In this document: positions 13,280 to 55,829 of the stretch, one piece after another
Position numbering within the stretch: position 1 is the stretch's first letter
Layout of the letters: the number at the start of each line of letters is the position of its first letter
Origin: a virus
Lineage: Duplodnaviria; Caudoviricetes
IMG/VR virus record: IMGVR_UViG_3300033463_000004
Location: 1 to 64,000 of that record
Reading direction: 5' to 3' (one strand)
Length of the DNA: 64,000 bases
The notes under the pieces: model-generated
Told to the model about the DNA's origin: nothing
Seen by the model: only the letters and a program-made list of their open reading frames with translations
Database searches by the model: none
Position numbers and translations under genes: made by a program

Positions 13280-13303
13280 TATTCCAAAGGAGGAAAACTA
13301 CTC

Positions 13304-26877: not shown

Positions 26878-26967
26878 GAAATATTTTTGTATTGTGGATA
26901 TGTACATAATTCATGGGATATTCACTACACAAGAATATCTAAATTATTCCAAAGGAGGAAAACACTT

Positions 26968-35058: not shown

Positions 35059-36503
35059 TGCGAATTGAAAAGACTACAACAGGTGTTATTATCAAAGATC
35101 CAACAAATGAAGTCAAACGGAAATGTTTGCAATATTTCACGCTTCAGAACCCTACTCGTGAATTCTTTGTTTATTCAGGTAATGACCCAGATAACAAACC
35201 AATTCTGGGTCATGAACATGACGTAATCTATATTACGTCAGGATTTTTAAAAATCAATGATCCTGAAATTAAAAAACTCAAAATTGATTCAACCAAACAA
35301 TACTTGACACCAAAACAAATCACGTTGACAATGAATCGAACGCCGCGTTCAAAATTACAAGAAGATTGCATTCGAATGATTACAACTTCAGAAGCTTCAA
35401 AAATTACAATGGAGCTAAAACCTGGAGTCGGCAAAACCTTTATAGCATTATATGGTGCATCAAAACTTGGATTGAAACCTTTGATCGTTGCGCCAACATC
35501 ACTGTTGAAGAATCAATGGATTGATAATATCGTTGAACTCGGTATTGATAAATCCGATATTGCAACAAAGATTTGGGATGCACCCGAAAAGAAAGTTTGT
35601 GTTGTTACAATATCTTCACTTGAAGGTGCTGTTCGTGATGATTGGAATGGGCTTATGAAGACTTTGGATTCAGCAGGTTTTGGAATCAAAGTCATTGACG
35701 AAGCTCATCTTCATCTGAAAGGAATCTTAAAGTTTGATGCATTATGTAATATCAAACATAACTGGTATCTATCAGCAACACTCGGAAGATCTGATCCATC
35801 TGAAGACAGAATCCTAAATCGTGCTTTAGCAGATGCAAAACGATTCATTGGTAATTCTGCATATGAAGAATATCAAAAAGAATATGTCCAAGTATATCTG
35901 CAAGACATTTATTATTTCCCATCATCTAAGCTGTGTAATAAATGTTTCAAGTATGGTTCAAAAGGTTTGATACGTGCTTCATACTATCGTATGTTGATGG
36001 AATACAGGAACGGCCAACCCTTCATCAATAATGTTATCAATGTCATTAAACGTGCAAAAAGCATTATTAATTATGATGGAAAGATTCTTGTTCTTGTTCC
36101 ATTAATCGATATTATCGATAAGATTATTCTTGCAATGAAAGCCGATCCATACTTTAAGAATTATACGTTTGCAGGTGTTGATGGTTCAATGCCATTATCA
36201 AAACGACGTGATGCAATGGAATCAAATTTCATTTTATCAACATCATTGTCAATGGGAACCGGCGTTGACGTATCGAATCTTGGAGTTGTTGTTAATTTTG
36301 ACCAATATTCTTCATCAATTATCGGAGAACAAATCTTCGGACGTTTACGTGACAGAGGAAAAGAGACATACTATATCGACGTTTGTGACCATGTAAAACA
36401 AGCATCAATGCTTGCTCGATGGGGAAAGAAGCGTCGTTTATTGATTCCATATTATCCAGGTGCAAAACGTGACATGAAGAAATTTCCTGTTATATATTGC
36501 TAA
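35058..36503 (+). CDS. SF2 DExH helicase (UvsW-like)
   Basis: PGVGKT, IDEAH, LSAT, GTGVD, QIFGRLR. Confidence 0.88.
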   Translation: MRIEKTTTGVIIKDPTNEVKRKCLQYFTLQNPTREFFVYSGNDPDNKPILGHEHDVIYITSGFLKINDPEIKKLKIDSTKQYLTPKQITLTMNRTPRSKLQEDCIRMITTSEASKITMELKPGVGKTFIALYGASKLGLKPLIVAPTSLLKNQWIDNIVELGIDKSDIATKIWDAPEKKVCVVTISSLEGAVRDDWNGLMKTLDSAGFGIKVIDEAHLHLKGILKFDALCNIKHNWYLSATLGRSDPSEDRILNRALADAKRFIGNSAYEEYQKEYVQVYLQDIYYFPSSKLCNKCFKYGSKGLIRASYYRMLMEYRNGQPFINNVINVIKRAKSIINYDGKILVLVPLIDIIDKIILAMKADPYFKNYTFAGVDGSMPLSKRRDAMESNFILSTSLSMGTGVDVSNLGVVVNFDQYSSSIIGEQIFGRLRDRGKETYYIDVCDHVKQASMLARWGKKRRLLIPYYPGAKRDMKKFPVIYC

Positions 36504-36511
36504 ACGGAATG

Positions 36512-36682
36512 ATAATCCGGAATGTTCCTTCTCCGTTTTCATACAAGGTTTGGCCGCCTTGTTTTCGCCGTAAGCGGGACGGCGATTTGCTGTGTTTTCC
36601 TCCTTGAGAACAGTGCATAATACACCATTCGAAAACATTCCGGATTATTTGATAATTTATGTGGGGGCGAAAGCCCCCACAT
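36512..36682 (+). ncRNA. Structured small RNA candidate A
   Basis: 15-bp terminal stem 36512-36526/36634-36648 enclosing three hairpins; AACG-N6-TA at 36503-36514; GAAA-loop hairpin 36659-36682. Confidence 0.6.
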
Positions 36683-36696
36683 TATCAATATATCAT

Positions 36697-36727
36697 ATTT
36701 TCATATATATATTATTATTATGAATAA
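36697..36727 (+). promoter_or_regulatory. Extended early promoter, identical to an inverted copy at ~21853-21883
   Basis: attttcatatatatattattattatgaataa at both sites. Confidence 0.7.
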
Positions 36728-36839
36728 GAGATAATCTATACAAATGGATTGTTTCATATTCATAATAAGAAGGGTATTTATACCCTATAACAATTAAATC
36801 TCTCACGCCACGAGGGATAAAAATGAGGAGGATATAGTC

Positions 36840-37202
36840 ATGAAGAAATATTTTGATGAAATCTCGGAACTTGGCGAGAAATTTGAGAGAACAATCTCTC
36901 AAGCTGTAGACATCGTTGCTGACATGAAATCGGTAACGTCTGCATGGATTGCGGCAGCAGACGCAATCCGAGCAAAAGAAATGGTCGGACTGTTGTCCGG
37001 CGAGAAGCTGGAAAAAGCCAAAGACAATCTAATGCCGGCATTTTTGTCGACAGAAGATAAAACATCGTTTGATGAGGTATATGAAAATATGACCTCATCT
37101 ATCAAAGATTTGGACAAACTGATGTCCAAAGTATCGTTGATTCTCTTCGAAGAGAATCAAAATCATCAGGAAGAAAATCATCAGGAAAAGGAGGAAAACT
37201 AA
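36840..37202 (+). CDS. Hypothetical early protein
   Basis: GAGGAGG SD; structured leader. Confidence 0.75.
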   Translation: MKKYFDEISELGEKFERTISQAVDIVADMKSVTSAWIAAADAIRAKEMVGLLSGEKLEKAKDNLMPAFLSTEDKTSFDEVYENMTSSIKDLDKLMSKVSLILFEENQNHQEENHQEKEEN

Positions 37203-37203
37203 A

Positions 37204-37551
37204 ATGACACTTGACGACATCAAAGAGTCTCTCGAAAAGAGACTCGAAAATCTTCTTAACTCTGGTGGGGAGGTAGACTTCCCGAATGGGAAGGCCATCA
37301 AAATTGAGGGCCCGCGTGGAGCGGCAGTCCTCATTACAGGCCTGCTCGCAGGTGTTGGCACCGCGATCGCTGCTGCAATTGTGACTAAACCGGTTGCAGT
37401 CGCAGCCGATGCAGTCAACCGCCTTGTGCGGGACGGTACTGAACTCCGCAATGCAATCACGGATTATCGTGATTGCAAACGAGGAATCTATCCGTTTCCG
37501 GATCAAACGATTCCGGAACCGGAAACATCAGAAGAGGATGCGGGGGATTAA
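37204..37551 (+). CDS. Hypothetical protein with hydrophobic segment
   Basis: AAGGAGG SD; AAVLITGLLAGVGTAIAAAIV. Confidence 0.75.
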   Translation: MTLDDIKESLEKRLENLLNSGGEVDFPNGKAIKIEGPRGAAVLITGLLAGVGTAIAAAIVTKPVAVAADAVNRLVRDGTELRNAITDYRDCKRGIYPFPDQTIPEPETSEEDAGD

Positions 37552-37577
37552 CCCCCGCATCTCATCTTTTTTTTTTG

Positions 37578-39707
37578 TTAAAAGTTTTGATTTACACTTG
37601 TGAAATATGCATAATCAGATGCATCCAATAAATCAACAGGAGGATTATCTCCACCGTAATCTTGACGTTTATATCCATATACATCATATCCATTATTTGA
37701 AAATCCTGATGCACGGCTATTGTCCATGTTTTCTCGTAACAATTGATTTTCAAATCCATTTGGATCTTTGTATGGAATGATATTGTTGATTTGCTGCTCA
37801 GATAATTCTTTATCATATTCTGCAACTTCACGTCTTGCATTTTTAAATGTACATAAATCTTTATGTATGCCAAAGCGTTCCAATTTGAAACCAAAATAGA
37901 AAATATATAGCACATGGTTATATGCCATGACCAAGTCATCATGACAACCAGAAGCAGCTTCAATTTTTCCATTCTTTGCACGAACAAGATTCATGATATC
38001 AAATGATAAACACTTTGTTGTTAAAAGTTCTTTGTAATCATGAACATGTGATTTCAACAGAACAAACATCTTTTCACGAATCGCAGTTGTAAGATATGTA
38101 CCAATGTATCCTTTTTCAATTGCTTTCCGTTTTACAGTCATTTCATTTGTTTCATTTTTTGTAATTGCATTCTTAGATGCATCCAATTTTGGATCATGAT
38201 AGAAACGATGTTCCAAATTGGATTCTTGTACAAAGTCAACAATTGCAGTACCCAAATTATTTGTTTCAATAATAAAGATACATGATGGAATCAGCTTTGC
38301 AACCTCAATTATGACACGCATTAAATCCAATGGTCCTAAGAATGGGGATACCAATTCACCAACAACTTGGAACGTATATGGATGAACAACAATCAATGCT
38401 GTATTATCTCCATTCTTTCCAGATGCAGGGTCGATACCAACCATGTATGGAAGCTTGATATCATAATACGGTGTATTTGATGTCAGACTCTTATGAACAA
38501 TTTGATGTTCATAAACTAAGAAATGATATTTATTCAATATCATGATGTCATGATCCGGTTGACGTGTATGTTGTGCAATATAATCAATGTCAGCTTGCTC
38601 GAAAAGAACACCTTCATCACCACGATATCTTTGTAACAAAACACCACGACGATATTCGTTGATCGTTCCTTTTTTGACAGCTTCGTAGTATTGTTCTTTT
38701 AACCAGTTTTCATCTTTGCGTAATTGTTTATAATTAAACTCGATATAGAACATAGATACTGGTATACGATCTTTATCGTCATCGTCAGCTTGAGGAATAC
38801 TCTTCATATGTTCAATTTCAGCATCAGTTTTGTCATAAATATGTTCGTCAAATACAGGAAGATTGTCAATAATTTTCTGGAAGTCAATTCCTTCTTGTGT
38901 TTCGAGGTTTCCAGGTGTGGAAGCATACATGATACATGAACGTATACCCATTTCTCTAGCAGTGATACGTGCCTGAACGATTGTCGGGTTGGCACCATCG
39001 ATGAATTGTTTCATATAAGAAATAAACTCACATTCATCAAAGAAACCTGCATAAAGTGAAAGACCACGAGATTTATCTTCTGCAACAGATTCTGAACGTG
39101 CTGCAGAAACAGTTGCAATTGAGCAGTTGTGTGCTTCATACCGAAGTGACTGAAGACCTGGTAGATGTTTTGCATTTGCCCATGGATTCATGTATTTCGG
39201 TAGAGCTGTGATATAATCACGCAGAATACCAACATTGTCCATACATCGTTTTTCTGTACGATGCATGTATGGAATATCGACATTTCGATATTCAAATAAC
39301 ATCATATATGAAACAATTGATGTCAGTACTGTCGTCTTATAAGTTTGACGAGGTTGTACAAGTTCGAAATCGAAACTATGAATGAATGACCATATTGCGG
39401 CACAACCAGCTCTATGTAAATACAATGGAACCGCGCCTGCACCACGGATCGGTATTCTGACAACTTCTCTAAAATAAAACCATGGATTACTTTTACATTC
39501 AGCAACAATTCTTCCTATATTTTCTGCAGTAATATTTGGATCATATGGGTCGATGTCTTGTACACCTAAATGTGGAAAGGAAACTTCTAACATGAAATAC
39601 CAATTTTTGATACCAAGTGTTTTTAATTCTTGTGCTGTTAACAAAAAAGATTGGTTTTTTGTTCCAAAATCATAATATTTATTTCCAATTCGTTTGATAT
39701 CTGACAT
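37578..39707 (-). CDS. Terminase large subunit
   Basis: PRQTYKTT Walker A, FFDECEF Walker B, YASTPG, VGIDPASG and HDDLVMA nuclease motifs; start 39707-39719. Confidence 0.9.
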   Translation of the reverse strand: MSDIKRIGNKYYDFGTKNQSFLLTAQELKTLGIKNWYFMLEVSFPHLGVQDIDPYDPNITAENIGRIVAECKSNPWFYFREVVRIPIRGAGAVPLYLHRAGCAAIWSFIHSFDFELVQPRQTYKTTVLTSIVSYMMLFEYRNVDIPYMHRTEKRCMDNVGILRDYITALPKYMNPWANAKHLPGLQSLRYEAHNCSIATVSAARSESVAEDKSRGLSLYAGFFDECEFISYMKQFIDGANPTIVQARITAREMGIRSCIMYASTPGNLETQEGIDFQKIIDNLPVFDEHIYDKTDAEIEHMKSIPQADDDDKDRIPVSMFYIEFNYKQLRKDENWLKEQYYEAVKKGTINEYRRGVLLQRYRGDEGVLFEQADIDYIAQHTRQPDHDIMILNKYHFLVYEHQIVHKSLTSNTPYYDIKLPYMVGIDPASGKNGDNTALIVVHPYTFQVVGELVSPFLGPLDLMRVIIEVAKLIPSCIFIIETNNLGTAIVDFVQESNLEHRFYHDPKLDASKNAITKNETNEMTVKRKAIEKGYIGTYLTTAIREKMFVLLKSHVHDYKELLTTKCLSFDIMNLVRAKNGKIEAASGCHDDLVMAYNHVLYIFYFGFKLERFGIHKDLCTFKNARREVAEYDKELSEQQINNIIPYKDPNGFENQLLRENMDNSRASGFSNNGYDVYGYKRQDYGGDNPPVDLLDASDYAYFTSVNQNF

Positions 39708-39767
39708 CGAAACCATCACCTCCTATCAATAAGCGTTATAGTATCGGTATAAAAAAAATATAGAATA

Positions 39768-39789
39768 CATGGGGGCTTTCGCCCCCATG
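39768..39789 (-). terminator. Intrinsic terminator after RNAP beta-C
   Basis: catgggggc-gaaa-gcccccatg on the minus strand, then a T-rich tract. Confidence 0.8.
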
Positions 39790-39832
39790 CAAACATTAAG
39801 ATTGACGCACGGATCCTCACGGAGGAAATTTA

Positions 39833-42052
39833 TCAGACATATTGTTTCAATTGATTTAATGTTGGTAAAAGTTCGGTGAATCGCCCATACATGGATTCAA
39901 TATAATTGCGATCGCTACCTTCAAACAAGTCGGTTTCATCCATAAGTTTAAAGAATTCATCCAGATCAACAAACGGATGTGCATTCTGGTATTTCATGAA
40001 ATATGAATACATAATCAAGAATGCACGAAGTTCAGGAATTGATATTTGAACTTCAACGTTATTGATCAAAACATCATATAACTTATCGAATGTACCAATT
40101 GTCGAATAACCGAAGATATCAGGACGCAATTTGATACCCATAAATTTGAGCGTGTTCTTCAAGTTATCCAATTGTGGAAATTGGTTGTACTTTGAGAAAT
40201 CTAATCCCATATCATTTAATTGCGCCATGAGGATTGAATTTTCTTCATATTGAGAACCACGATAATATGTCGTAATCTTTGCGAAATCTTTTACACCAAC
40301 ACCCGCAAGGAAGTTATACGTGTCATATTCACCAAACTTCACAGGGTTATCAGAATAATGTCGTAAGTTCTTATTGAACTGATGTGTCTTGACAGGTTGA
40401 TCATATAATGTCGTACGTCCAGTTGAAATTGCAGATAATGCTTTTGATGGTTCTTGTTTCAATACCCACGTATATTGGTATCCAACAGGATAAGTTTCAT
40501 CCAATTTGATCCAACGTTTATGAAGCTTCGTAAATACATTATAATGGCGCATGATTGCAGGATATTTTTCATATGCTTCCAGTATTGCATCACGAACACA
40601 TACTTCGTTGAATGGTTTAATTTGAATATTAATACCATTCATAAGAATATCATCAACAACAATTTGTGGAGATTCTTTATATAAACGCCGTATCTCGTTA
40701 CCTTGATCCGGATTGAAGATTGAAACGAATTCAGATGTGATATTGATAATTTCATCATTTGATGCACCGTTCTGATACATCTTTCCGATATGCTGGTTCA
40801 TTCTGTCCATCATGAATGTCATGGAACCTTCATAAGTTGCAAATGCAATAATACGATTCGGAACCGCAAGTGCATTTGCTAACATATGAATCGGACGTCC
40901 ATCATCTGTTTTTGGCATATCTGCAGCTGGAATAATTTTGGAAATAACCGATTTATTTCCATAACGTCCAACAACCTTCTGTCCAACTTTGATTTCCATA
41001 GGTTGAAGCATTGTGAACTTAATAATTGTATCCGCAATATATTCCTTCGTAACCCATACGGATTGATTCAAATATTTTTGTGCTTTATGATAAATATCCA
41101 ACAATGATGTGTCATCCTGATATGGATCAACAATTACAGTTGATATATATGCGTATATATCAGAATACCATTGTTTGATTTGTGATAAATAGAAATTGAA
41201 TTGATCATTCTCAACATCAACATTCGTAAAGATATCAATGTCAGCAACAATACCATGTGAGAAAATCTTTGTATCATTGATATGAGGTATGGAAGCTTCT
41301 GCAACAGATGATACATATGAATTCTCTCTAATAGAACACAAGATATCATCTTGAACTTCTTCACCGATATTTGGAAATGGTTTGTATTCTCCATTTCGAC
41401 CATAACGATTCAGCAGAAATGATTTCTTTGAAACATTCACCGTTACAATATCAACGAAATCATATTCCAATGCTTTTGCACATTCATCAGAAATAATTAA
41501 TGAATCTTCTGTGAGTTCCGGTAGTACAGCATATGCCATACGAACATTTACACCCGCGCAATAATTGTCATTTACATAAGATGACGATTGTGCAATGGAA
41601 GCTCCTTTCGGAAGAACATCTCCTTCTTGAATATTGGGGATATTATTCTTCATACGAAAACCGTATTTTTCAACAAGATTCACTGCCGGGGTGAATATTT
41701 TACAAAGATATTTTCCCGTTTCAAGATTCTGAAATATATATGCAATTGGTGAATAAGGTGCATTCGGAAACTTTACAAACTTTCGCATTAAACGGTAATC
41801 TGCATGTGTTCTGATATCCCATGAAGAACGTTTTCCGAATTCGTTCTCTGCACCAGAAAATACCATGGGAAATTCAGGATTACGAACAACCAATCTTTGA
41901 GAAGTATGTTTTACCATCATTCCTCCACGTGTCGTGGAAATCTTCTCAGGGAATGCCATTGCAGACATACCAGTCAATGACAAAGGATTTACTTCAGCAC
42001 ATCTTCTTTCAATGTCCGAAGCATTGTTCATAACTTGAGATTTTTTGGACAT
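39833..42052 (-). CDS. Phage RNA polymerase beta C-terminal subunit
   Basis: STTRGGM..H..Q, TEDSLIIS, GQKVVGRYGNKSVISKI, DGRPIHMLANALAVPNR, PVKFGEYD. Confidence 0.9.
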   Translation of the reverse strand: MSKKSQVMNNASDIERRCAEVNPLSLTGMSAMAFPEKISTTRGGMMVKHTSQRLVVRNPEFPMVFSGAENEFGKRSSWDIRTHADYRLMRKFVKFPNAPYSPIAYIFQNLETGKYLCKIFTPAVNLVEKYGFRMKNNIPNIQEGDVLPKGASIAQSSSYVNDNYCAGVNVRMAYAVLPELTEDSLIISDECAKALEYDFVDIVTVNVSKKSFLLNRYGRNGEYKPFPNIGEEVQDDILCSIRENSYVSSVAEASIPHINDTKIFSHGIVADIDIFTNVDVENDQFNFYLSQIKQWYSDIYAYISTVIVDPYQDDTSLLDIYHKAQKYLNQSVWVTKEYIADTIIKFTMLQPMEIKVGQKVVGRYGNKSVISKIIPAADMPKTDDGRPIHMLANALAVPNRIIAFATYEGSMTFMMDRMNQHIGKMYQNGASNDEIINITSEFVSIFNPDQGNEIRRLYKESPQIVVDDILMNGINIQIKPFNEVCVRDAILEAYEKYPAIMRHYNVFTKLHKRWIKLDETYPVGYQYTWVLKQEPSKALSAISTGRTTLYDQPVKTHQFNKNLRHYSDNPVKFGEYDTYNFLAGVGVKDFAKITTYYRGSQYEENSILMAQLNDMGLDFSKYNQFPQLDNLKNTLKFMGIKLRPDIFGYSTIGTFDKLYDVLINNVEVQISIPELRAFLIMYSYFMKYQNAHPFVDLDEFFKLMDETDLFEGSDRNYIESMYGRFTELLPTLNQLKQYV

Positions 42053-42195
42053 GACAATCACCAATCCTTTCGATAAAGTGTATAAGTTAGTTGTAACCCC
42101 TTTATATTTAATCATACTTTTGGGTTACTTGAAAACGATATACTTCTCAAAATAAAAAAAAATATAATGCGGGGCATTGCCCCGCATTATATTCA

Positions 42196-43074
42196 TCACT
42201 GATCTTCAGGAGTTGGTGTTGGTACTTGTGAAAGAACATCAACAACGTACTGCTCACATGGTGATTTTTCTTCTGCATTCGACATGAAATCAGATATTGC
42301 AAAGTCTGCAATAAGATACATACCAAGTACAATATACTTGTCTCCAAGTATATCAACATTTGAAAGCATGATATCGATCAGATCCAACAGATTGAATGGA
42401 CACGGACATTTATCTGACAGATAAAATTCGCAAACCTTCTTTTCCATCGGAGCAAAGAATAACATATCTTCACGATATTTGTTAATCTTATTATCATTGA
42501 ATTTCTTCGTATGAAGATAATTCTTAATATCATTCAATGTGATATTTTCAACAATGTATTCAATCATTGGTGTCATATTCGAAAAGATTTGAATACGAAT
42601 CTTTTCAATTTGCTCAATGTATTTATACACTGCCCAATAGATGAACACGTCGTCAACAATATCATCCATTGTTGCCTCACCGTTTACCAATGCCATGATA
42701 ACCGGATGTGTTTCATTGAAATCTGACCGGATACGTTCTTCGGTAATACGATTCTTGATACGTTCATACTCGGGAACAATTCTGTTTACAACGAACAAAC
42801 GTTGTTTCATAAGATCAGCCGGGTCAATTTCGTCCGGTGTTTCTTTTGGTTCGATGTCACTCGGGATAAATGCATCGATTGGAGATGTTTCAAGTTCAAT
42901 ATCCGATGTAAATGTTTTGTATTCTTCATCAAACATCTTACGATCAAGAATATGATGGCGTCCATTCAACATTCTGACATTTTGAAAGAATACATTACAT
43001 GCAGAGATTTGAACTCGGTGTGTTTCAAAGAGTTTTGTGAACTCATTGATTTTCGATTGCGGGATTTTGAACAT
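42196..43074 (-). CDS. Hypothetical protein
   Basis: GGAAGGA SD before MFKIPQ (43074); terminator at 42163-42191. Confidence 0.7.
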   Translation of the reverse strand: MFKIPQSKINEFTKLFETHRVQISACNVFFQNVRMLNGRHHILDRKMFDEEYKTFTSDIELETSPIDAFIPSDIEPKETPDEIDPADLMKQRLFVVNRIVPEYERIKNRITEERIRSDFNETHPVIMALVNGEATMDDIVDDVFIYWAVYKYIEQIEKIRIQIFSNMTPMIEYIVENITLNDIKNYLHTKKFNDNKINKYREDMLFFAPMEKKVCEFYLSDKCPCPFNLLDLIDIMLSNVDILGDKYIVLGMYLIADFAISDFMSNAEEKSPCEQYVVDVLSQVPTPTPEDQ

Positions 43075-43249
43075 CCGAATCTTCCTTCCATTGTAGATTT
43101 TGCTGTGGATAACGTTGTGCATAGTATTGCTCTCTGATAGGTTGATAATTATCAACCACGAAAGCAATTCCATTTTTTTCTATATGCACATGAACGAACA
43201 AGTCCAGTCGTGTAAACTGGACTTGTCCGAAAGATGAAGCATTGATCAT
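43043..43249 (-). CDS. Small hypothetical protein (68 aa)
   Basis: AAAGGA SD plus ATG; fills the operon gap. Confidence 0.55.
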   Translation of the reverse strand: MINASSFGQVQFTRLDLFVHVHIEKNGIAFVVDNYQPIREQYYAQRYPQQNLQWKEDSDVQNPAIENQ

Positions 43250-43282
43250 TCTTTATTTAGTTCCTTTCATATGGATTTCCCA

Positions 43283-43596
43283 TTAAGAAAGTTCATCGAC
43301 CAAGTCATCAATTGCCGAAGTGTTCAAAACTTGATGGGCGTTACGAATGGAATCATTATAACTCATTTGAGAACCATGATTTGTATTCGTTGACGCCATC
43401 TGTTGTTGATGTTGTTCCATTTGGCGCCGTTTCTGGAACCGTCGGAGTTCTCGGAGTCTGTTTACAAACTTGCGCGGCATTTGTAAGAGCGTATCAATTG
43501 GGATACACCGATTGAACAATTCGCCGAGTTCAATCAGCTCTGCTCCATCTCTGTCAAGTTTATTGCGGTAGACGACAGCCTCTGAGATAGCTGGAA
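43283..43596 (-). CDS. Tail/baseplate assembly chaperone C-terminal extension (probable -1 frameshift product)
   Basis: -1 frame reads FPAISEAVVYRNKLDRDGAELIELGELFNRCIPIDTLLQMPRKF; no SD-ATG start. Confidence 0.55.
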
Positions 43597-45285: not shown

Positions 45286-45388
45286 TTTTCATACTCCTTT
45301 TTGAGAAAAATTTTTCAAACAGAAATGTATATCATTGAAATGACATACGGGAATAACTCTGTATGAAATTATAAAGGGAGTATATGAT

Positions 45389-46111: not shown

Positions 46112-46118
46112 TGATATA

Positions 46119-46775
46119 ATGTATGAATTTTCATGGAGACCAATCAATTGGGGTCCCGAAGATGAAAAAACTGGTGTGAATGCACGAATATTTGTGCAAA
46201 CTCTTGACAAAAATATGATGGATTTATTTTTAATCCAACATGGATTTGATCCAAAAAATGCAGATGTTAAAATAACATCGGATGACGATTATTCGGATGA
46301 CGATATGATTACATTGAAGATATTTAGAGTTGGATCTAGAAAACGGGATAAGATATATCAGATTGCAACAACAACGGAGATTGTTATGGAAATTATATCC
46401 ACAATCAGTGTTGAGTTACTAGATACAATGTCATTTGGTGCATGTGCATTAAAAGGAGAAATCGAATTATTCAATCGCGTTCAATCATTGATTGAAAAGT
46501 TAGATTATGTTTATATCAGAGAAACAAATCCGGGATTCTTGGAAAATATGGATGAAGATGCATACGCATACAGATATCCCGGTTATCCTGGATATCCCTC
46601 ATCGTATGAGGAACTATCTCGAGATGATGATATTGATGCATTAACGGAATCATTATATAACGCAGCAAATTGGACAACAGATGGTATACAACCATTTACA
46701 ATAGAATCGTATATATCAATATTCACAAGTGATTATCTTTTAGGAAAGGTGACGAAAACACATGGCTACCAATAA
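46119..46775 (+). CDS. Hypothetical acidic protein
   Basis: GAGGTG SD; 218 aa. Confidence 0.7.
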   Translation: MYEFSWRPINWGPEDEKTGVNARIFVQTLDKNMMDLFLIQHGFDPKNADVKITSDDDYSDDDMITLKIFRVGSRKRDKIYQIATTTEIVMEIISTISVELLDTMSFGACALKGEIELFNRVQSLIEKLDYVYIRETNPGFLENMDEDAYAYRYPGYPGYPSSYEELSRDDDIDALTESLYNAANWTTDGIQPFTIESYISIFTSDYLLGKVTKTHGYQ

Positions 46776-47163
46776 AAAGGAATTATCATTACAGGAATTG
46801 GTCGAATCTCATCGACCAAAGAATTTTAAATATTATTTTTATTTTCATAATCCAGATGATGTTGTTGAATTAGAGAAGAATGGATTCGATGTGACATTAC
46901 TTGACACAATTTGCAATCCGGAATTAATTCAAGCAGCAAAACAAGCAACGTTTAAATATTATGAACGCGATATAGTCGCACATGCAAAAGAACCAACGAT
47001 ACTTGAAAAAGGTGTAATCATGACAAAACAAATGGCAACAAAAACAGACAAAAAATTATCACAAGTTGGTGTTGCATTTTTCTCATTGATGAATGTGGAA
47101 TATGTTGCTGTCAAATTATGCTATGATAAATTTGACATATATGAGATATTTATTTTGACATAA
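46762..47163 (+). CDS. Hypothetical protein
   Basis: Overlaps the upstream stop; terminator at 47166-47190. Confidence 0.7.
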   Translation: MATNKKELSLQELVESHRPKNFKYYFYFHNPDDVVELEKNGFDVTLLDTICNPELIQAAKQATFKYYERDIVAHAKEPTILEKGVIMTKQMATKTDKKLSQVGVAFFSLMNVEYVAVKLCYDKFDIYEIFILT

Positions 47164-47200
47164 TTAAGGTGGGGCAAACACCCCACCTTTTCTTTGTTCT

Positions 47201-47389
47201 TATAATGAATAAAATGAGACCCATGAAGAACTTACGTCACCACAGGAGGTGACGATCATGTCTGAAATCGTTATTATACGGATTCCTCAAGGAACAGAGA
47301 TCATTTGTGAGTAACGTTCACAAATAAAACACAAACCACCATCTACAACTTAGGTGATATACTTCATGGATCTCATTTTATTCATTGTA
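47201..47389. ncRNA. Structured RNA candidate B (28-bp terminal stem, internal 18-codon ORF)
   Basis: 47201-47228 pairs with 47362-47389 with two imperfect positions; internal hairpins; lies between terminators 47166-47190 and 47412-47452. Confidence 0.6.
47258..47314 (+). CDS. Possible micropeptide MSEIVIIRIPQGTEIICE
   Basis: Perfect AGGAGGTGA SD at normal spacing, partly sequestered in hairpin 47235-47254. Confidence 0.3.
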   Translation: MSEIVIIRIPQGTEIICE

Positions 47390-47459
47390 TCAAAGTTATT
47401 ACAATATAAAATATACATGGGGGCATATGCCCCCATGTATACTTCTTTTTTTTGTACAA

Positions 47460-48566
47460 TTAGCCCGGTGCAGCATCTGATGCATACGGATTCGAGATAT
47501 CCGTATAAGAACCTTCCGGAGTATTGTAGATCTTGGAGTGATCGCTCGGTGTAAGAACGGTCTCCGGTTTTGCCTGACGTGCGATGCGTTGATTGTTCGT
47601 ACGGAATACCGGAATGTTTCCGACTCCAGACTGAACAGCATCGAGGTCCGGTCTCTTGCCTTTGTTGAACATATCGGTGTTGATATCTCCATATGTGGTA
47701 GGATTCGTATCGGTGAAGAATGCGTCTCCAGCACCAGGGTTGTAGTTCATCTTGTTTCCGAAGACAGCGAACTGCTGTACATATCTGGTCGCAAGATCGT
47801 TAACATATGCAGACTCAACGAACTGGCAGTTGTACTGCAACGTCAGAGTTTGTAGCTGAGAAGTACCAGAAGCGTTGGAATTGTAGATATCATATCCAAC
47901 CTTGCCGGACGGAATGCATCCGAGAGCCATCATAGCACCCTCAACACGTGCACCAGATCTGTCAAGTGCAATGATGAGGAACTCAGCAACTTCCCATGCA
48001 GGGGACGGCTCCAAAGCAACCGTGGATCCACCACCAGATGCCGGAGTAAAGATTCTTTGCGGAATCTTCTGTGCATCAACAGAACCAGCAACCAAACCAT
48101 GATAATGTGTGAGACCAGTGATCTCATCAGCAATACCATCAATCCACATATTATGGAAGTTTGCAGCCGGACGACCAACCAATTCAGGAATGGTAATCTG
48201 AAGTGACTGGTTGTTGTTTGCATTCTGCTGTGTCGGAATCGGAATACTTCTAGAAGCGAAGCCACCCTGCAGGTTTGTTGTCGCCAGTGAATGGTCACCA
48301 GCATTCACCGTGATACCAGTGTTATAGCATTCGATGAGTTTCTTGTACGTTGCGAACTCTTTGTTCGTATACGCATTTGAACCATCACCGAAATAGTGCA
48401 TCAGGAAATAAGGTCCACGATACATGACACAGATAACACGGTTTGTAGTCTCGGGGTTAAGACTCCGGAGTGTGTGAACATCCGGAGTCAAGCCGCCGAG
48501 CATACCTGTGTATTGTGAAAGGTCACCATTATATTCACGGATACCAGTTTGCAAGCTAATCGGCAT
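47460..48566 (-). CDS. Tail tube protein
   Basis: Directly downstream of the sheath gene; ITIPELVG.P..NFHNMWIDGIAD..TGLTHYHG; strong codon bias. Confidence 0.7.
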   Translation of the reverse strand: MPISLQTGIREYNGDLSQYTGMLGGLTPDVHTLRSLNPETTNRVICVMYRGPYFLMHYFGDGSNAYTNKEFATYKKLIECYNTGITVNAGDHSLATTNLQGGFASRSIPIPTQQNANNNQSLQITIPELVGRPAANFHNMWIDGIADEITGLTHYHGLVAGSVDAQKIPQRIFTPASGGGSTVALEPSPAWEVAEFLIIALDRSGARVEGAMMALGCIPSGKVGYDIYNSNASGTSQLQTLTLQYNCQFVESAYVNDLATRYVQQFAVFGNKMNYNPGAGDAFFTDTNPTTYGDINTDMFNKGKRPDLDAVQSGVGNIPVFRTNNQRIARQAKPETVLTPSDHSKIYNTPEGSYTDISNPYASDAAPG

Positions 48567-48592
48567 AACTATTTCTCTCCTTTCTCAAAACA

Positions 48593-51500
48593 TTAGGTCG
48601 TTGTGACACGTCTGTTGACATTCACAATGACCGGGATACGGAGATTGATGCCACGGAATACAACGTCGACGTAGCAAACAATAAGTTCGCCACCATCAAG
48701 CGGATTGATGTCACGCTCGAAATGGATATCGAGACCATCAACAAGAGATCCAACCCAGTTGGTGAACATGTTTGTTACTTCATCCTGCATCGTTCTGAGG
48801 AAGGAATCATCGTTGTACTCGAAGAGCTTCTCATCGAGCTTGTTCTGGAGGATGTATACAAGCTGCGTGAGCGTTCTCATGTTGGACTCCTGAATCAGAT
48901 CGGAAGTATCCGAACCTCTCATCAGAGTTCTCTGAGAACGACGCATGATTGCACCATTCACATCCGGAATCCAAGCGTTACCGCCCGAATTGTACATAAG
49001 CTCACGATAATCCCAGTCAGTGGTGTCAATGTCCGGGAAGTAAGATACATACTCAGACCGATCAATCTTACTGTACGTGTTGACGAACGGCTTATTGACC
49101 GTGTAAGTCTGACAATGTCTGAAGAGATTGTCTGCAAGTCTCTTCACATAGGTGTACGGCAGTCCATCCACACTGGCGTACCAACCACCAATATCCCAAG
49201 AAGCATTCGGGTTATCGAAACGCTTGATGAAGGAATTGTTGATTGTCAATGCCATTTCAGCATCAGTAACACCAGAGTCAAGATGCAGCGACATGCCGGA
49301 ACCAGGACCAACTGGACGTTTATCCTCCGGAATACCAGAGTAGACACGGTAATCCATCAGATCATACATAGCCTGCTTAACATCGATTTCGCTGTTCTGT
49401 GCAGACCATCCAGCGGTCAGTTCAGGATTGAAGAGAACCTCATCCTTTTCATCTGCAGTGAAGATAGTTGAAGCAGCAATGAGATCAGCAGCACTGTAAG
49501 ACATCGACGGAAGTGCGGACTGACCAACAACAGTGTTCCAACCACCATCAAAGAGATACTTTGCAGGTACACGAGTCGGTGACATAATTCTCGGATCAAT
49601 CTGACCACGGAATGCCTTAACGAGCAGACGTGAGTATTCCCACTTGTACTCGATATCAGACATTTCAGCAGTACCATATTCATCAAAGAATCCAGTGTAA
49701 CCATCGTGAAGCTTCACATCAGAAGAAGAACTTGTCACGTTGATTCCATACGAAGACGAATAGTAATTCGCCGGAATCGTAACCTTGTTCATCTGAATAC
49801 GATACAGAGAACCAATCGTACCAGTTACAGTGTAACGGTTGATCAGAACTGCAGCACGTGCATCCTGTACCCAAGTGAAGTTTCCGGCAACGAAGTTCAA
49901 TGACAGACCACCAAGAACCCAACCATCTGCAACCTGAGGATCAGGAGCATCGGTCGGAACAGACGTATCAATCATCCATTCGCCGTTAGTATTTTGCTTA
50001 TACCAACGAAGAATCTGGTTCATGCCGGTGATACCTTCGAGCAGTGTGTATGCAGAACCATCACACTTATAGTACTTGATACTGGACGGATCAGTGAAGT
50101 CTCTGAAGACACTCCACTTAGATTCATCAGTTGTCTTGTCATACTTGTCATCCTCTGTCCAAGTATCCTTCGTGCGATAGAACTCACCTTCATGGAGATA
50201 ACCGTCATACACGTTCAATGCAACAAATGCTGCAAGACCACTGTTTTCGATTTCAGTTGCGTAGTAAGTTTTCGAAATCTCAGACTTTGTAATCTCAGAA
50301 AGTGTGATATCACCACCAGCAGATTGCTGAATCGGTGCGAAACGGAACCGGGTGCTTTCGGGAGTCCAACCAAGCGTGCGCTCCGGAGGAACGATTGTAC
50401 CAGTTGGTACATTCGAAATAGTAATAGCAACATATCCCTGTGCACTTGAATCAGTCTGAATACGATATGCTTCAGCCTTATCTTCAGAAACACAGAAAGC
50501 GTCATACTGCGTACCGACAACATCAGATGCAATAAGCGTCGTTGTAGTCGGCGGTGCACCGTACTTACGAATTGTAGTGAGGTTTCTATTCGCAACGGCA
50601 TAGGTGATTTCATGATCATCGGCATCTTTGTATCCAGAATTCACCCATACAGGTTCTGCTGTTGAAGTAGAGGAGATGTCAGCATCCAGATTGAAGCAAG
50701 TTGAACCAGCACGTTTGAATGCTTCACCCTTGGAACCACCCTCATATCTTTCAGAAGCAAGACCCACAACATTTCCAACATTATCCATGGTATCCCATGC
50801 GATGAAGTCGTATCTGTTGTTCTTGTTGTTCGCGATTGTTTCATCGAAATAGAGCATCAGCCACAGTTTGAAGTTAGCCTCACTCTCAAGATCAGAAACA
50901 TAAGTTCCAGCTTTTACCTTATCTGCAGATCCTTCCTTAACAAAGTACAGATCCCAAACGACAGTATCACCAGACGGGACAGCCCATGCAACGGTATCGC
51001 CATCTTTGACAAATCCCTTTGCAATCTTATCACGAACTTCTTTGACAAATGTCATCCGGTCTTTCGTTGCACATACAAATGCAAGCTTGGAGTCAACATC
51101 AGTACCAAGATCATTTCTGTAGAAATGCATCATGTTAGTTCTGACGGTTGTAACAGACTTGGTGTACTGGTTGATTCCAGTAACAATGTATACGAATGGA
51201 TTAGTATCAGAAGTGATACCAGCATACAGATACACATCACCAAGATATGTTGCTTTCGAATCAATGACACCAGATGCATCAGTACCAACCTTCTTAATAC
51301 CAGTTGTGATATTAATCAGGCTCTCAGAAACCTTTGCATCAACATTGATCGGATCTTCATTTGCATCAACCGGCTTACCTTCTGCATCAAGAGTTCCATT
51401 ATAGTATACTCTCTGAGATTCCGGAAGCTCCGGACGATCTGCCGTACGCATATCAACCTGGAAGAACGGAAGCAATGCGTTTGAATCCGTTCCGCCGTAG

Positions 51501-52444
51501 AGATACAGACCAAAGATCGGATCGAATGTATTGACGGTCAATGTCTTGAATACATCGGTTTCATAATCAGTGGTCAAGTTGCTGTTATCATTCAGCATCT
51601 CAGCAAAGTATCCACGATATACATTGTACAGTTCCTGAACAGCTTCCTCATTGAGGAACGGAACCACAACAGAAGAACCTGCTGCGCGTTTACCGACAAC
51701 AATGTTTACCGGATCAATTGCATCTTCACGATGATTGTTGACATTCACCAGAGATGCATGGAATTGCTCAACAGCAAGATTTGTCATCGTATTGATTGTG
51801 GTGAAGAGATAACGAACATTCGCCGGTCTCTTTGCTTGAACCGTTTGATTGATCGTAGTTGTGAAGTTGTTATATGCAGAACCACGACCTGCAGAAACAT
51901 TTACAATGAATGCACGACGGACCCAAGTTTCACCAGTGTCGTCAACATATGCATCGTTCTTTGCATGTTTCTTGATATACTCAGCAAGACGCTGTTTGTT
52001 CTGAAAGTTCACAAGATCCATATCGTTTTCAAGGCTGTAGTTGCCATACCGGACATGGAGTTTCTTGTTCTCTTTATCCCAACGCCACTCGATTGTGATG
52101 CAGGAATATGCATATGTTGCATCAGACGGAGTAATACGGAGCAACTGCACCGGTGCACCCTGATCGATAATGGACAGCGGATATGTAATCGTTTGACCAT
52201 ACTTCTTAATCTCAGAAGTGCCGATATTACCGAGACCATATGCAACATTGAGGATATCCGAACGCATGACCTGGATCACTTTGTTGTCTTCGCCCATGGG
52301 AAGGCCAGAAACAACAAGAGTTCCATACATGGACGGATCTTGTGCAACGACAACCGGGAGATCGCCAGTGTACGAAGAATTGTCCACAATGTGAACGAGC
52401 GTATGAGGAAATGGGTATTTCATGCCATACTTCGTATCAAGCAT
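48593..52444 (-). CDS. Contractile tail sheath protein with large insertion
   Basis: N-terminal PHTLVHIVDNS; C-terminal RSQRT..DLIQESNMRTL....FEYND...CYVDVVFRGI; 1283 aa. Confidence 0.8.
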   Translation of the reverse strand: MLDTKYGMKYPFPHTLVHIVDNSSYTGDLPVVVAQDPSMYGTLVVSGLPMGEDNKVIQVMRSDILNVAYGLGNIGTSEIKKYGQTITYPLSIIDQGAPVQLLRITPSDATYAYSCITIEWRWDKENKKLHVRYGNYSLENDMDLVNFQNKQRLAEYIKKHAKNDAYVDDTGETWVRRAFIVNVSAGRGSAYNNFTTTINQTVQAKRPANVRYLFTTINTMTNLAVEQFHASLVNVNNHREDAIDPVNIVVGKRAAGSSVVVPFLNEEAVQELYNVYRGYFAEMLNDNSNLTTDYETDVFKTLTVNTFDPIFGLYLYGGTDSNALLPFFQVDMRTADRPELPESQRVYYNGTLDAEGKPVDANEDPINVDAKVSESLINITTGIKKVGTDASGVIDSKATYLGDVYLYAGITSDTNPFVYIVTGINQYTKSVTTVRTNMMHFYRNDLGTDVDSKLAFVCATKDRMTFVKEVRDKIAKGFVKDGDTVAWAVPSGDTVVWDLYFVKEGSADKVKAGTYVSDLESEANFKLWLMLYFDETIANNKNNRYDFIAWDTMDNVGNVVGLASERYEGGSKGEAFKRAGSTCFNLDADISSTSTAEPVWVNSGYKDADDHEITYAVANRNLTTIRKYGAPPTTTTLIASDVVGTQYDAFCVSEDKAEAYRIQTDSSAQGYVAITISNVPTGTIVPPERTLGWTPESTRFRFAPIQQSAGGDITLSEITKSEISKTYYATEIENSGLAAFVALNVYDGYLHEGEFYRTKDTWTEDDKYDKTTDESKWSVFRDFTDPSSIKYYKCDGSAYTLLEGITGMNQILRWYKQNTNGEWMIDTSVPTDAPDPQVADGWVLGGLSLNFVAGNFTWVQDARAAVLINRYTVTGTIGSLYRIQMNKVTIPANYYSSSYGINVTSSSSDVKLHDGYTGFFDEYGTAEMSDIEYKWEYSRLLVKAFRGQIDPRIMSPTRVPAKYLFDGGWNTVVGQSALPSMSYSAADLIAASTIFTADEKDEVLFNPELTAGWSAQNSEIDVKQAMYDLMDYRVYSGIPEDKRPVGPGSGMSLHLDSGVTDAEMALTINNSFIKRFDNPNASWDIGGWYASVDGLPYTYVKRLADNLFRHCQTYTVNKPFVNTYSKIDRSEYVSYFPDIDTTDWDYRELMYNSGGNAWIPDVNGAIMRRSQRTLMRGSDTSDLIQESNMRTLTQLVYILQNKLDEKLFEYNDDSFLRTMQDEVTNMFTNWVGSLVDGLDIHFERDINPLDGGELIVCYVDVVFRGINLRIPVIVNVNRRVTTT

Positions 52445-52565
52445 TATATTCTCTCTCCTTTTCTATAGATTTTGGATTGTGTAATTACGAGGAAACAGCA
52501 TGAAGAATCGCGTTTCATGCGGGAATAACCTCACAATTATCATTTTGTGTGAGGTATATAAATAG

Positions 52566-52589
52566 TGGCGGGGGATTATCCCCCGCCAT
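52566..52589 (-). terminator. Intrinsic terminator
   Basis: tggcggggga-tta-tcccccgcca. Confidence 0.8.
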
Positions 52590-52594
52590 ACATT

Positions 52595-53554
52595 TTAAAG
52601 ATTTAATTCATCACGCCGAATTACCGGATATTCATTCATCAATTCATCAATTGCTGTATTTGTGTCATGATTGACCTTTGTAATACGTGCATCCGGATTC
52701 GGATACTCTTCGATGATTTCACCGGATTTTGATTTTGTGACGTATTCTGTATCAGAATCAGTATCACCGACAACGACATATGTCGTTGGTTTATCTGCTT
52801 CGAAAACTGTTGTTGCAGCAACATTACCTGCGTCGACAATACTATTCAAAACATCAGAAGCCTGATCAACATCAATCGTTGGATAATTTGCATTAATAGT
52901 CGTTTCAGTTTGTTGCGGTCCTATGTTGATATCAAACATATTATCCATTATGGAACGACCGATATCATACACATTTGTCTTTCCACCGGTTGAACCTTGT
53001 TGTGGACCAACTGCACCGGTTGCTTGTTGTTGCTTGATCTTCAATTCTGCAATTGCCTTTTTCACATTAATTTGTTTTTCTTGAATTGACATTAATGTTG
53101 AACGTGCCGATGTTAATGCTTGCATTGCTTCAATGTCATCTTCATTCAAACCAAATTTTCCTTTGTCGTTTAAACTTTCCATTGCTTTTCGTTCAAAGAC
53201 CTTAATGATTTTTGCTTGATCTGCAGCCATTGTTTTCAATGCAGCAATATCAGAAGTGAAGATTTTATTTGGTTCAACTTTCTCTTGGAGTGGACCAAGA
53301 TCTGCACTCAATTGAAATGCATTCATAAGATCTGTTGTGCCACCCCAATGTCCGGATGAATATGCGGAAATATATCCATCCATATTCGGATTGAATCTTG
53401 GACGTTCTACGAATCTTGTATAACGATCCAACCATGCATTTGGATCACCAAGATTCTTATCCCATTCGGATACTGGTTGTTGATGATATTCTTCGTTGAC
53501 TTGTTCAAATGAACGTACTTCATTCAGTTGGTTAAATGCATCAAGCATTCCCAT
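52595..53554 (-). CDS. Hypothetical late protein with coiled coil
   Basis: AAAGGAG SD; AACA-N6-TA at 53601-53612. Confidence 0.7.
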   Translation of the reverse strand: MGMLDAFNQLNEVRSFEQVNEEYHQQPVSEWDKNLGDPNAWLDRYTRFVERPRFNPNMDGYISAYSSGHWGGTTDLMNAFQLSADLGPLQEKVEPNKIFTSDIAALKTMAADQAKIIKVFERKAMESLNDKGKFGLNEDDIEAMQALTSARSTLMSIQEKQINVKKAIAELKIKQQQATGAVGPQQGSTGGKTNVYDIGRSIMDNMFDINIGPQQTETTINANYPTIDVDQASDVLNSIVDAGNVAATTVFEADKPTTYVVVGDTDSDTEYVTKSKSGEIIEEYPNPDARITKVNHDTNTAIDELMNEYPVIRRDELNL

Positions 53555-53731
53555 GGAATCATCTCCTTTAAAATAGTATATGAGATATTCTTCATCTCAA
53601 TACAGTAGTGTTTAAAATATAATCATGTTTTACGTGGGGCAATGCCCCACGTAAATGATTCTTCATATGTATATTATTATTTTGACAATAACCGGAGATA
53701 TTGTCTAAATCCTAGAAAGAAGGTGATTGTC

Positions 53732-53923
53732 ATGTCCTTTTGGACAAATGAGCTGAATCGTTTAGGGTTTTCCGCAAACGATTCAGCTCACAAGTCTGTG
53801 TCCAGACTTGTTGTTGATAACAAGCGATATGCATCAAATATCCAACAAATCAACAATCAAATCTGTGATGCAGTAAAAAGCGTTTTGAATAAATCCGAAA
53901 ATAGATTTGTCATAACGCTTTAA
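53732..53923 (+). CDS. Small early protein (63 aa)
   Basis: Early-type promoter at 53665, 5' hairpin, AAGGTG SD, terminator at 53928-53964. Confidence 0.65.
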   Translation: MSFWTNELNRLGFSANDSAHKSVSRLVVDNKRYASNIQQINNQICDAVKSVLNKSENRFVITL

Positions 53924-53998
53924 TCTTATAATGGGGGGAGATACCGGATGATCTCTCCCCATTATATATTCATGAGTATGTTTTTTTTGTAATAAATA

Positions 53999-55504
53999 TC
54001 ATTCAAGTTTCGTTAAACCGTATAAACCATTCAAACATTCTTTTTCAATTGGGAATGCTGCTGTAAGATCTGTGCGAACACAATAGATTTTTGAATACAT
54101 CATTTCTTCCGCTTGTTTGTTTGCTTCATCAGACCATACACCAGTACTCTTAACTGTATCACCATCATAGTCACCACCGAGATTCACAAGACGTGAATTC
54201 GACATTTGAAGTACGTCAATAAATTGTGTTGATACTTTTGCGTGTGACATTTCTGGATCAACAACTGGATATGTTTGATATGTTTCACCATTAAATTGAA
54301 TCGGGATTGTGGTGTTTGTTGATAATACATGCACCTTTGTAAAGAAAGCTCCATACAGATCACCGATTGGATATCGAACGGTGTAAACATGACGATCAGC
54401 TTTCACTGTTGCGTTGTAGCAGCATAGATAAATGACGTCAGTTAATGTCAATGGACGAGAGATAGATTCGTTTGTTTGAATATTTACTGCATTGAATATA
54501 ATCGGTGTTTTATTCTCAGGATCAGCATATAATATACGGAAACGAGAACCCGGATTCAACATGAAGATTTTAATTAAATCATCAATCTCTTTGTCATCAT
54601 AAATATTATCAATATCTGAACGTTTGATTTCATCTGGATTAGAATGGAAAGATGTTATATTATCATATGAAAGAAATTGTTTCATATTGAATTTAACAAA
54701 TGGACGGAACATGGATAAAATTGACATCAATGGATATCCTGTACGGAATATTCCAACTGGTGTATTATCTGTACGATATGATGGTGCAGAAATAACATTA
54801 CGGACTGTACCAATTGTATTCTTTGCCAATAAATTTCTCTGGAAGTATCCATTCTTTGTTCCACATAATTTATGAATGTATGAATAGATTTCAATAACGG
54901 TATCTTGGATTTGATTGTGTGCTTTGTGTACAGTCGTTGTGACATGAGACGTTACGGATTTAAATCCAAGCAGCTTCATATAAATAGTATTCAATTCGGA
55001 TTTAATCTGTCTACCATTTCTCATACCAGTTGGACGCATTGACGGTGGTAATACAAGAACCTTGTCAATGAATAATAAACGTTTTGGTGTCTTTGTAAGA
55101 ATTTTAATATTTTCATCACGTTTTGTTTTTAATGTTTTTACGATATCAATTTGATCCCATATATTATACAGATCAACAATACCACAATATTTTCCATTCT
55201 CATTTTCAACCAGTTGTCCATCAATCAAATCACATTTAATTTCAGCATATGCTAATTTACGAATGATTCCACCGGAACGAAGAATGATTGTTTTTGCAAT
55301 ATGTGGATTGAATACATGAATTGGTAATTTAATATATCCGCAACGATATTTTTGTTCTTCTTCAGTTTGTCCAAAGATTTCTTCTGAGAATAATCCATTT
55401 GGATTGAATTGATTCGTTGAACGATATATTTGAGGTGATGTAACTTCTTGCAGGTTATTCACCTTAATAGCTAAATCCATATCATATAAACCTTGAATTT
55501 GCAT
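53999..55504 (-). CDS. Phage RNA polymerase beta' N-terminal/catalytic subunit (probably virion RNAP)
   Basis: NGLFSEEIFG, GYIKLP, VLPPSMRP, VRYPI, catalytic LGGDYDGD. Confidence 0.9.
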   Translation of the reverse strand: MQIQGLYDMDLAIKVNNLQEVTSPQIYRSTNQFNPNGLFSEEIFGQTEEEQKYRCGYIKLPIHVFNPHIAKTIILRSGGIIRKLAYAEIKCDLIDGQLVENENGKYCGIVDLYNIWDQIDIVKTLKTKRDENIKILTKTPKRLLFIDKVLVLPPSMRPTGMRNGRQIKSELNTIYMKLLGFKSVTSHVTTTVHKAHNQIQDTVIEIYSYIHKLCGTKNGYFQRNLLAKNTIGTVRNVISAPSYRTDNTPVGIFRTGYPLMSILSMFRPFVKFNMKQFLSYDNITSFHSNPDEIKRSDIDNIYDDKEIDDLIKIFMLNPGSRFRILYADPENKTPIIFNAVNIQTNESISRPLTLTDVIYLCCYNATVKADRHVYTVRYPIGDLYGAFFTKVHVLSTNTTIPIQFNGETYQTYPVVDPEMSHAKVSTQFIDVLQMSNSRLVNLGGDYDGDTVKSTGVWSDEANKQAEEMMYSKIYCVRTDLTAAFPIEKECLNGLYGLTKLE

Positions 55505-55551
55505 ACGATTCCCTCCTTATCAGGATAAAGTTACAAAAACGTTTTTAATAT

Positions 55552-55718
55552 AAAAAATAAGTGTGCAGGGGCCGAAGCCCCTGCAAGAGAAAATGAGGAA
55601 GTCTGTCATGTCAAACCGAGAAAACATGACGAAATGGAGAATAATCCAGCGTGGATACAATGGATTGGAAGATTGTCTTTTCGGCAAAAGACAATCTGGT
55701 TCATCATACAATGAACTT
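55552..55718 (-). ncRNA. Structured small RNA candidate C
   Basis: GACA-N6-TA at 55729-55718; four consecutive hairpins; then GGGGC-UUCG-GCCCC terminator and U tract. Confidence 0.65.
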
Positions 55719-55829
55719 ATTTTTTTGTCATTTAAATAGATATATTATTTTTGCGTCATGAAGATGTTGTATAATCTTCAGCTTCTCAGAACAAACAAAT
55801 ACATTTTGGTTATGAAAGGCGGGTTTTTT

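Follow-up and report, generated by a model that had tools for sequence, protein, structure and literature searches.

Three structured intergenic units in an AR9-like jumbo phage: two candidate late small RNA families and a micropeptide gene

Introduction

What is encoded by the three intergenic gaps, nearly filled by predicted RNA stems, in the first 64 kb of the 262,694-bp virus record IMGVR_UViG_3300033463_000004? This 64-kb stretch is referred to as the window and the gaps as units A, B and C (Table 1). A reading made from the sequence (the original prediction) took all three for one possible system of late small RNAs (sRNAs) that silence early or host mRNAs by pairing with Shine–Dalgarno (SD) sequences, or serve as structural or decoy RNA. 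Our analysis points to three unrelated units, namely two late sRNA genes (A and C) and one micropeptide gene (B), an overall explanation to which we assign a probability of about two in three. The targets of lytic-phage sRNAs are almost unknown, and studies of phiKZ and 201phi2-1 leave function open (PMC8244752, PMC11512511). Unit A offers a named, predicted sRNA–target pair for which about ten phages supply natural compensatory variants, and this makes early-gene shut-off by jumbo-phage RNAs testable in vitro without phage culture, and unit B would represent an unannotated micropeptide family overlooked by gene callers.

The genome encodes split RNA polymerase subunits, PhuZ tubulin, terminase, topoisomerase II and a superfamily-2 helicase. 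By RNA polymerase, the closest cultured phages are Listeria phage LPJP1 and jumbo phages of Bacillus and Staphylococcus (28–33% identity). By these relatives it belongs to the AR9 group; it is a rumen jumbo phage, apparently lytic, and its strong use of SD sequences suggests a host among the Bacillota. Bovine or sheep gut was the source of the RNA run described below and of several of the related records; the related phage records and genomes compared are labelled L### and G###.

The early promoter of AR9 is AAATATATATTAT-6N-G and its late promoter AACA-6N-TA/G (PMC5312081). Both classes were found in the present genome, where the early motif occurred 32 times with the 6N-G spacing (11 times with 5N and 8 with 7N) and the late motif AAC[AG]-N6-TA stood ahead of 13 of 234 genes, compared with 2.8 expected; [AG]AC[AG]-N6-TA by itself is frequent, with 378 sites genome-wide. 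The late AACA-6N-TA/G promoter and the early promoter ending in 6N-G are thus shared with AR9, whereas the present phage often has AACG and varies the first base of the late motif. A text search of the AR9 transcription paper found no non-coding RNA described (PMC5312081).

Results and Discussion

Unit A, its homologues and its predicted target

Fold z-scores against dinucleotide shuffles were −6.8 for A, −7.6/−7.4 for B, and −4.9 (plus strand) and −6.8 (minus strand) for C, so that all three gaps fold far better than the shuffles (−4.9 to −7.6). As had been stated, the gaps lack mutual sequence similarity, apart from a terminator hairpin that is common in this genome; all CU-rich segments that were quoted are present; and two gaps start exactly at a late motif, A on the plus strand (36503–36514) and C on the minus strand (55729–55718), both running into terminator hairpins. 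Rfam gave no match over A, B or C in the window and five related loci, and no tRNA, tmRNA or Rfam housekeeping RNA was detected over the three units by ARAGORN or Rfam.

In DNA of relatives, the region 3′ of the helicase gene holds eight A-type units and four variant copies in which promoter, fold and loops are kept. The suggested comparison of syntenic regions showed that both A and C are conserved in relatives with the late motif at the 5′ end, and each A homologue begins at xAC[AG]-N6-TA with a variable N6. The stems of P3 vary around a constant loop, and the CCUCC of the P4 loop is invariant and was 75–100% unpaired in all homologues folded (fold z, −2.4 to −5.4). No open reading frame (ORF) is conserved on either strand among the homologues. 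From sequence, then, A has its own promoter and terminator and no conserved ORF, and the same is true of C. Unit A, whose neighbours encode the helicase and the terminase, was absent from the more distant phages examined and had no BLAST match in cultured phages, and neither a paralogue of A nor one of C was found in the present genome. A search with a loose A sequence pattern returned mostly chance matches, and neither loop–loop pairings within A nor complements of its invariant single strand showed conservation.

The A seed is predicted to pair with the ribosome-binding site (RBS) of the gene starting at 26968 with a net free energy of −14.7 kcal/mol, the opening of P4 included, which ranked first of 310 start regions; the pairing was better than that of 25/25 shuffled seeds. 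An early promoter lies about 50 nt upstream of the target in its orthologues, as a strict pattern in 6/9 and as near-matches in the rest. The target protein had no match in PHROG, Pfam, PDB or BFVD.

Target and sRNA change together. The covariation score was restricted to the spacer, outside the GGAGG SD core, and compared cognate with non-cognate pairs by permutation; the co-change was first noticed in four genomes, and eight further genomes were examined afterwards. Across nine genomes the cognate mean was 8.1 and the non-cognate mean 6.4 (p 6.5e-4). The cognate advantage persisted when the close clade was collapsed to six lineages (p 0.003–0.006), in all 12 genomes (p 8.5e-5) and in the eight later ones (p 0.0014), and an unbiased screen of 30 genes placed 26968 first (mean Z 3.0). 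Spacer states private to a lineage were common to sRNA and target in L003, L108, L118, L120, L009 and L224, among them AACAUC (L009), AAAACCA (L120) and AACACCC (L224). The sister phages G004 and L118 differ, and each sRNA fits its own target.

The agreement extends beyond this gene. Genome-wide, the extended motif fitting the present sRNA occurs at five sites here, one in G004 and none in G005, and the motif fitting the G004 and G005 sRNAs at none here, nine in G004 and seven in G005, so that motif counts switch with the sRNA (Fisher tests, p about 0.002 and 0.001). A switch in step with the sRNA was also seen among the orthologues of two genes, 13304 and 92659; for gene 13304 the spacer moves in G004 and G005, although alone it was not significant in the screen (p 0.49). 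Probable co-targets are a few further early genes that carry this extended RBS.

Because A mirrors the RBS of 26968 and changes in step with it, A probably switches this gene off, and, more generally, it most likely represses early phage mRNAs late in infection. In our proposal A acts in trans as a late antisense sRNA, about 135–170 nt long, which the phage non-virion RNA polymerase, by comparison with AR9, would start at 36514. The exposed CCUCCU loop would pair with the SD of an early mRNA; the weak P4 helix would then unzip, and its 5′ strand would cover the SD-to-AUG spacer and block 30S loading, so that early messages that are stable would be silenced as infection proceeds to its late phase. 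The sequences, their conservation, the covariation and the complementarity are observed; we infer that the RNAs are made as discrete late transcripts, that A pairs and represses in vivo, and what the B peptide does. The predicted silencing of early mRNAs by late sRNAs through SD pairing is best supported for A, with its early-promoter target and sRNA–target co-change; for C a late sRNA gene is supported and no conserved target was found, and for B the claim falls.

Table 1. Features of units A, B and C and of the predicted targets of A (window coordinates; SD, Shine–Dalgarno; RBS, ribosome-binding site; pLDDT, predicted local distance difference test).
Feature	Position	Strand	Basis or remark
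A late promoter, AR9-type AACG-N6-TA	36503..36514	+	sequence, AR9 consensus; predicted +1 = 36514
A multibranch sRNA body (predicted)	36514..36649	+	folds, unpaired probabilities
A closing helix P1	36514-36526 with about 36634-36646	+	96.6% paired; 3 compensatory pairs across homologues
A helix P2	36543-36562	+	
A helix P3	36565-36585	+	loop GCGGG in 8/8 A-type copies
A helix P4	36588-36617	+	
A invariant 11-nt single strand	36621-36631	+	predicted unpaired
A seed (P4 5′ strand and CCUCCUU loop)	36592..36605	+	perfect 14-nt complement of 26952-26965
A terminator-type hairpin	36659..36682	+	sequence; plus-strand loop GAAA or UUCG in 8/11 homologues
Predicted main target region	26900..26970	+	early promoter 26900-26910; +1 G 26917; 50-nt leader; RBS 26952-26965; ATG 26968
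Target gene, 301-aa all-helical protein	26968..27873	+	directly 3′ of PhuZ tubulin gene; model pLDDT 70
Candidate second target RBS	13287..13306	+	gene 13304-13984, early operon; 12-nt match to A seed
C late promoter GACA-N6-TA	55718..55729	-	predicted +1 = 55718; back to back with topoisomerase II early promoter
C sRNA body (predicted)	55586..55718	-	conserved 5′ hairpin, second hairpin, CU-rich single strand, variable third hairpin, CU-rich linker
C second hairpin, loop YGCC	55670-55697	-	
C terminator hairpin and U-tract	55553..55585	-	
B end-to-end stem, 28 bp	47201-47228 with 47362-47389 (unit 47201..47389)	+	encloses mini-gene
Terminator hairpins flanking B	47166-47189, 47412-47441		
B strong SD	47244-47252	+	
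B 18-codon ORF	47258-47314	+	beta-hairpin-like conserved peptide, Cys-Glu end

Comparison of A with known RNAs and other readings of its pairing

RoxS/RsaE of Bacillota inhibit initiation by means of single-stranded, C-rich seeds that base-pair with the SD (PMC5419742). A likewise has an unpaired C-rich seed complementary to an SD, and C is enriched for CCUCC; A differs in being phage-encoded, in its end-to-end helix and phage late promoter, and in pairing that reaches into a lineage-specific spacer, and the RoxS/RsaE Rfam model had no match over A, B or C. The structured c4 RNA of phages P1 and P7 acts in trans, its loops pairing with a phage mRNA around the RBS, and its specificity differs between sister phages (PMC12197685). 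A is similar in each respect, its RBS pairing being predicted; c4, however, serves temperate-phage immunity and acts on the antirepressor operon, whereas A lies in an apparently lytic jumbo phage, finds its match in an unlinked early gene at a distance of 9.6 kb, and has neither an Rfam match to c4 nor an antirepressor context, its neighbours being helicase and terminase. By analogy, A would work like RoxS or c4 yet belong to neither. Among phiKZ-like phages, the 201phi2-1 sRNA005 and the phiKZ gp182 sRNA were mapped by transcript ends and have no target (PMC11512511). These resemble A as short promoter-to-terminator units conserved among giant phages, but they have transcripts without a target, whereas A has a comparatively supported target and is known from sequence and contigs. 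The literature search found no paper on jumbo-phage anti-SD RNAs. On sequence grounds A and C appear to represent two new families of late sRNAs, neither of them described in the sources searched, with a mechanism that would be a variant of a known one.

The pairing could serve another end. A might act as a scaffold or guide, binding a protein of phage or host through its invariant loops while the seed picks tagged phage mRNAs for stabilisation, localisation or preferential translation. Consistent with this, three invariant single-stranded motifs of A besides the seed have no conserved complement among phage start regions, the RBS tag tracks the sRNA genome-wide, and C-rich pairing by RoxS can also stabilise mRNA (PMC5419742). 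The duplex, however, spans SD and spacer, the initiation-blocking geometry of RoxS and c4, and no partner protein was identified; we consider the scaffold unlikely. In a broader and doubtful proposal, AR9-like phages would possess their own post-transcriptional layer, in which a private RBS tag is read by a co-evolving late RNA with invariant protein-binding loops, and the resulting ribonucleoprotein would sort or silence the mRNAs so tagged when early expression gives way to late.

Alternatively, A and C might be generic SD blockers acting mainly on host mRNAs (host shut-off), in which case the match at 26968 would follow incidentally from spacer preferences that hold across a lineage. Any strong SD is matched by the CCUCCU core, the units of L223 and L225 keep this core without a spacer match, and C retains CCUCC, though not at a fixed place, with no phage target found. 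This would leave the private spacer states shared by sRNA and target in six relatives to be accounted for, and late timing is a poor fit to host shut-off, which we regard as quite unlikely.

Two arrangements around A deserve mention. In L118 and L171 the tubulin–target block has the reverse orientation and is found across the helicase gene, on its opposite side, and A still fits the target RBS. The post-helicase site in relatives holds other structured, often CCUCC-bearing units (L003 4450–4600, L010 5119–5330, L011 3618–3740 and L225 11470–11740), and from these sequences it looks like an sRNA gene hotspot.

Unit C

About 19 homologues of C were found, all on the same strand and pointing away from the adjacent early promoter of the topoisomerase gene. 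The motif (G/A/T)ACA-N6-TA is retained in syntenic homologues, and their layout is constant: late promoter, short 5′ hairpin, YGCC hairpin, CU-rich strand, variable hairpin, and terminator with U-tract (fold z, −1.7 to −4.5). A C model, which includes the promoter and several training sequences, found a match in 10/14 genomes. CCUCC occurs in 9/15 homologues compared with 1.3 in shuffles, and GGAGG in none; the C copy of the present genome is without CCUCC. No ORF is conserved on either strand, a 43-codon ORF opposite C being private to the present genome. These features support C as a second family of putative late sRNAs, which probably also acts on RBSs, as A does. The 3′ linker of C pairs with the RBS of the early gene 36840 (−21.4; 1/25 shuffles was equally good). 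This gene is a lead only, because the related loci examined contain no orthologue of it and the equivalent C linkers in relatives have no tracking site.

In the relatives inspected, the topoisomerase early promoter and the C late promoter (55718–55751) always stand 13 nt apart, which suggests a coupled divergent pair. The 5′ leader of topoisomerase II (window 55755–55830; true start about 55830) contains a conserved hairpin and an AC-rich motif, and relatives have this hairpin and motif in front of a gene for an RNA polymerase subunit (L108 16535–16735, L109 16540–16830), possibly as a shared cis-regulatory site.

Transcript contigs and evidence weighing on the sRNA reading

A near-identical phage was represented in one bovine gut metatranscriptome by contigs over A (36378–36649) and B (47136–47390), each ending at the 3′ end of its stems. 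The A contig spans from the helicase gene into A and ends at the end of P1, and both A and C adjoin genes, as would be expected if A were a structured 3′ untranslated region of the helicase operon, processed or cis-acting, and C a leader or attenuator of the RNA polymerase gene. In L003 and L009, however, an extra unit and a terminator intervene between the helicase gene and A, and the promoter motif is kept; for this reason the promoter is likely to belong to A. In L027, L107, L132 and L170, other genes lie between C and the polymerase gene, and C stays with the topoisomerase promoter, arguing that C is not a leader of the polymerase gene; the latter also has a late promoter to itself. We find the untranslated-region and leader reading very unlikely, and a processed A could still work in trans.

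Several observations count against A and C as late anti-RBS sRNAs. The contigs come from a single run, their ends, strand and level are not readable, and DNA may contribute to them; both start within the upstream gene and so fit read-through equally well. For these reasons the metatranscriptome lends weak support. Diverged units at the A position (L223 and L225) keep CCUCC and lack the spacer match, and A has invariant motifs outside the seed for which the anti-RBS reading does not account. The cognate pair tops its row in only 3/12 genomes, partly because close relatives cross-match, and the kinship correction was partial, the tree being mostly unresolved. Of 11 motif sites checked in relatives, two have no start codon, so not all are start regions; extended-motif genes are not significantly enriched for early promoters (4/10, p 0.22); and G–U counts are uninformative as to strand. 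For C, a 32-test screen gave no covarying target, the best candidate, 46119 (p 0.006), not being significant after correction.

Unit B, a stem-clamped micropeptide gene

Gap B had been listed as non-coding. It contains an SD-led ORF of 18 codons, the supposed anti-SD segment on the minus strand is the complement of this ORF's own SD, and the grouping of all three gaps into one sRNA system is replaced by two sRNA units and a micropeptide mini-gene. B holds the longest inverted repeat in the window, with 28-nt arms. The peptide was found in seven copies in five genomes: the present genome has this copy and paralogues at genome positions 174582 and 193329, and four other genomes contain homologues. 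Variation is greatest at third codon positions (14/16 columns, compared with 8 for first and 6 for second positions), and this synonymous change across seven copies whose stems differ indicates conservation at the peptide level. The other six copies have an early promoter upstream and a long clamping stem of different sequence.

A cassette with an early promoter occupies the same site and strand in L114–L117 and is absent at about 28 other relatives' loci; none was found in the closest complete relative. The present copy lacks a canonical promoter of either class and may depend on read-through. Neither Pfam nor PDB gave a match to the peptide, and in viral contigs a strict peptide pattern gave 0 matches and a looser one 1 true and 4 chance matches. 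We propose that B gives rise to an early mini-mRNA of accessory nature, with its ends held together by the long helix, probably for nuclease protection or processing, and that it encodes a peptide of 18–21 residues; that this peptide is most likely a host-directed early inhibitor is our guess.

Type I toxin mRNAs such as hok, fst and aapA combine a short ORF with a tightly folded mRNA and paired ends. B shares these traits, its end-to-end pairing and hairpin-held SD resemble those mRNAs, and the present copy is without a canonical promoter, so B might be type I toxin-like, or a purely structural RNA with an incidental ORF. Against this, the peptide is conserved through synonymous change while the stems differ, and it is beta-branched with Pro and Cys and has no hydrophobic membrane helix. 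No antisense partner or antitoxin RNA was noticed, nor, by inspection, a canonical minus-strand promoter. Either version is extremely improbable in our view.

Over 15 nt, the left flank of B (47197–47211) is identical to the reverse complement of the 174582 paralogue's right flank, and the interior of B may have flipped between the inverted arms. An early leader family with a promoter, a long 5′ stem and shared downstream hairpins occurs at window 36700–36840 and genome 174520–174790 and 222130–222305; the micropeptide lies inside the stem of the 174520 copy, and the 36700 copy is without it. In L202 (JAFVPU010000230.1), a contig of a Clostridia metagenome-assembled genome from sheep colon, a micropeptide cassette with a phage early promoter was found; this is probably a misbinned phage contig, at most a weak hint at the host.

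Other observations

Many helicase orthologues (L017, L171, L224) are about 840 aa long and contain a LAGLIDADG domain, consistent with an intein, which the helicase of the present phage does not have. Further stem-enclosed intergenic units, some with CCUCC loops, were seen at genome 76420–76640 and 180352–180494 and at window 3974–4140, and the stem-enclosed repertoire thus exceeds the three gaps originally listed.

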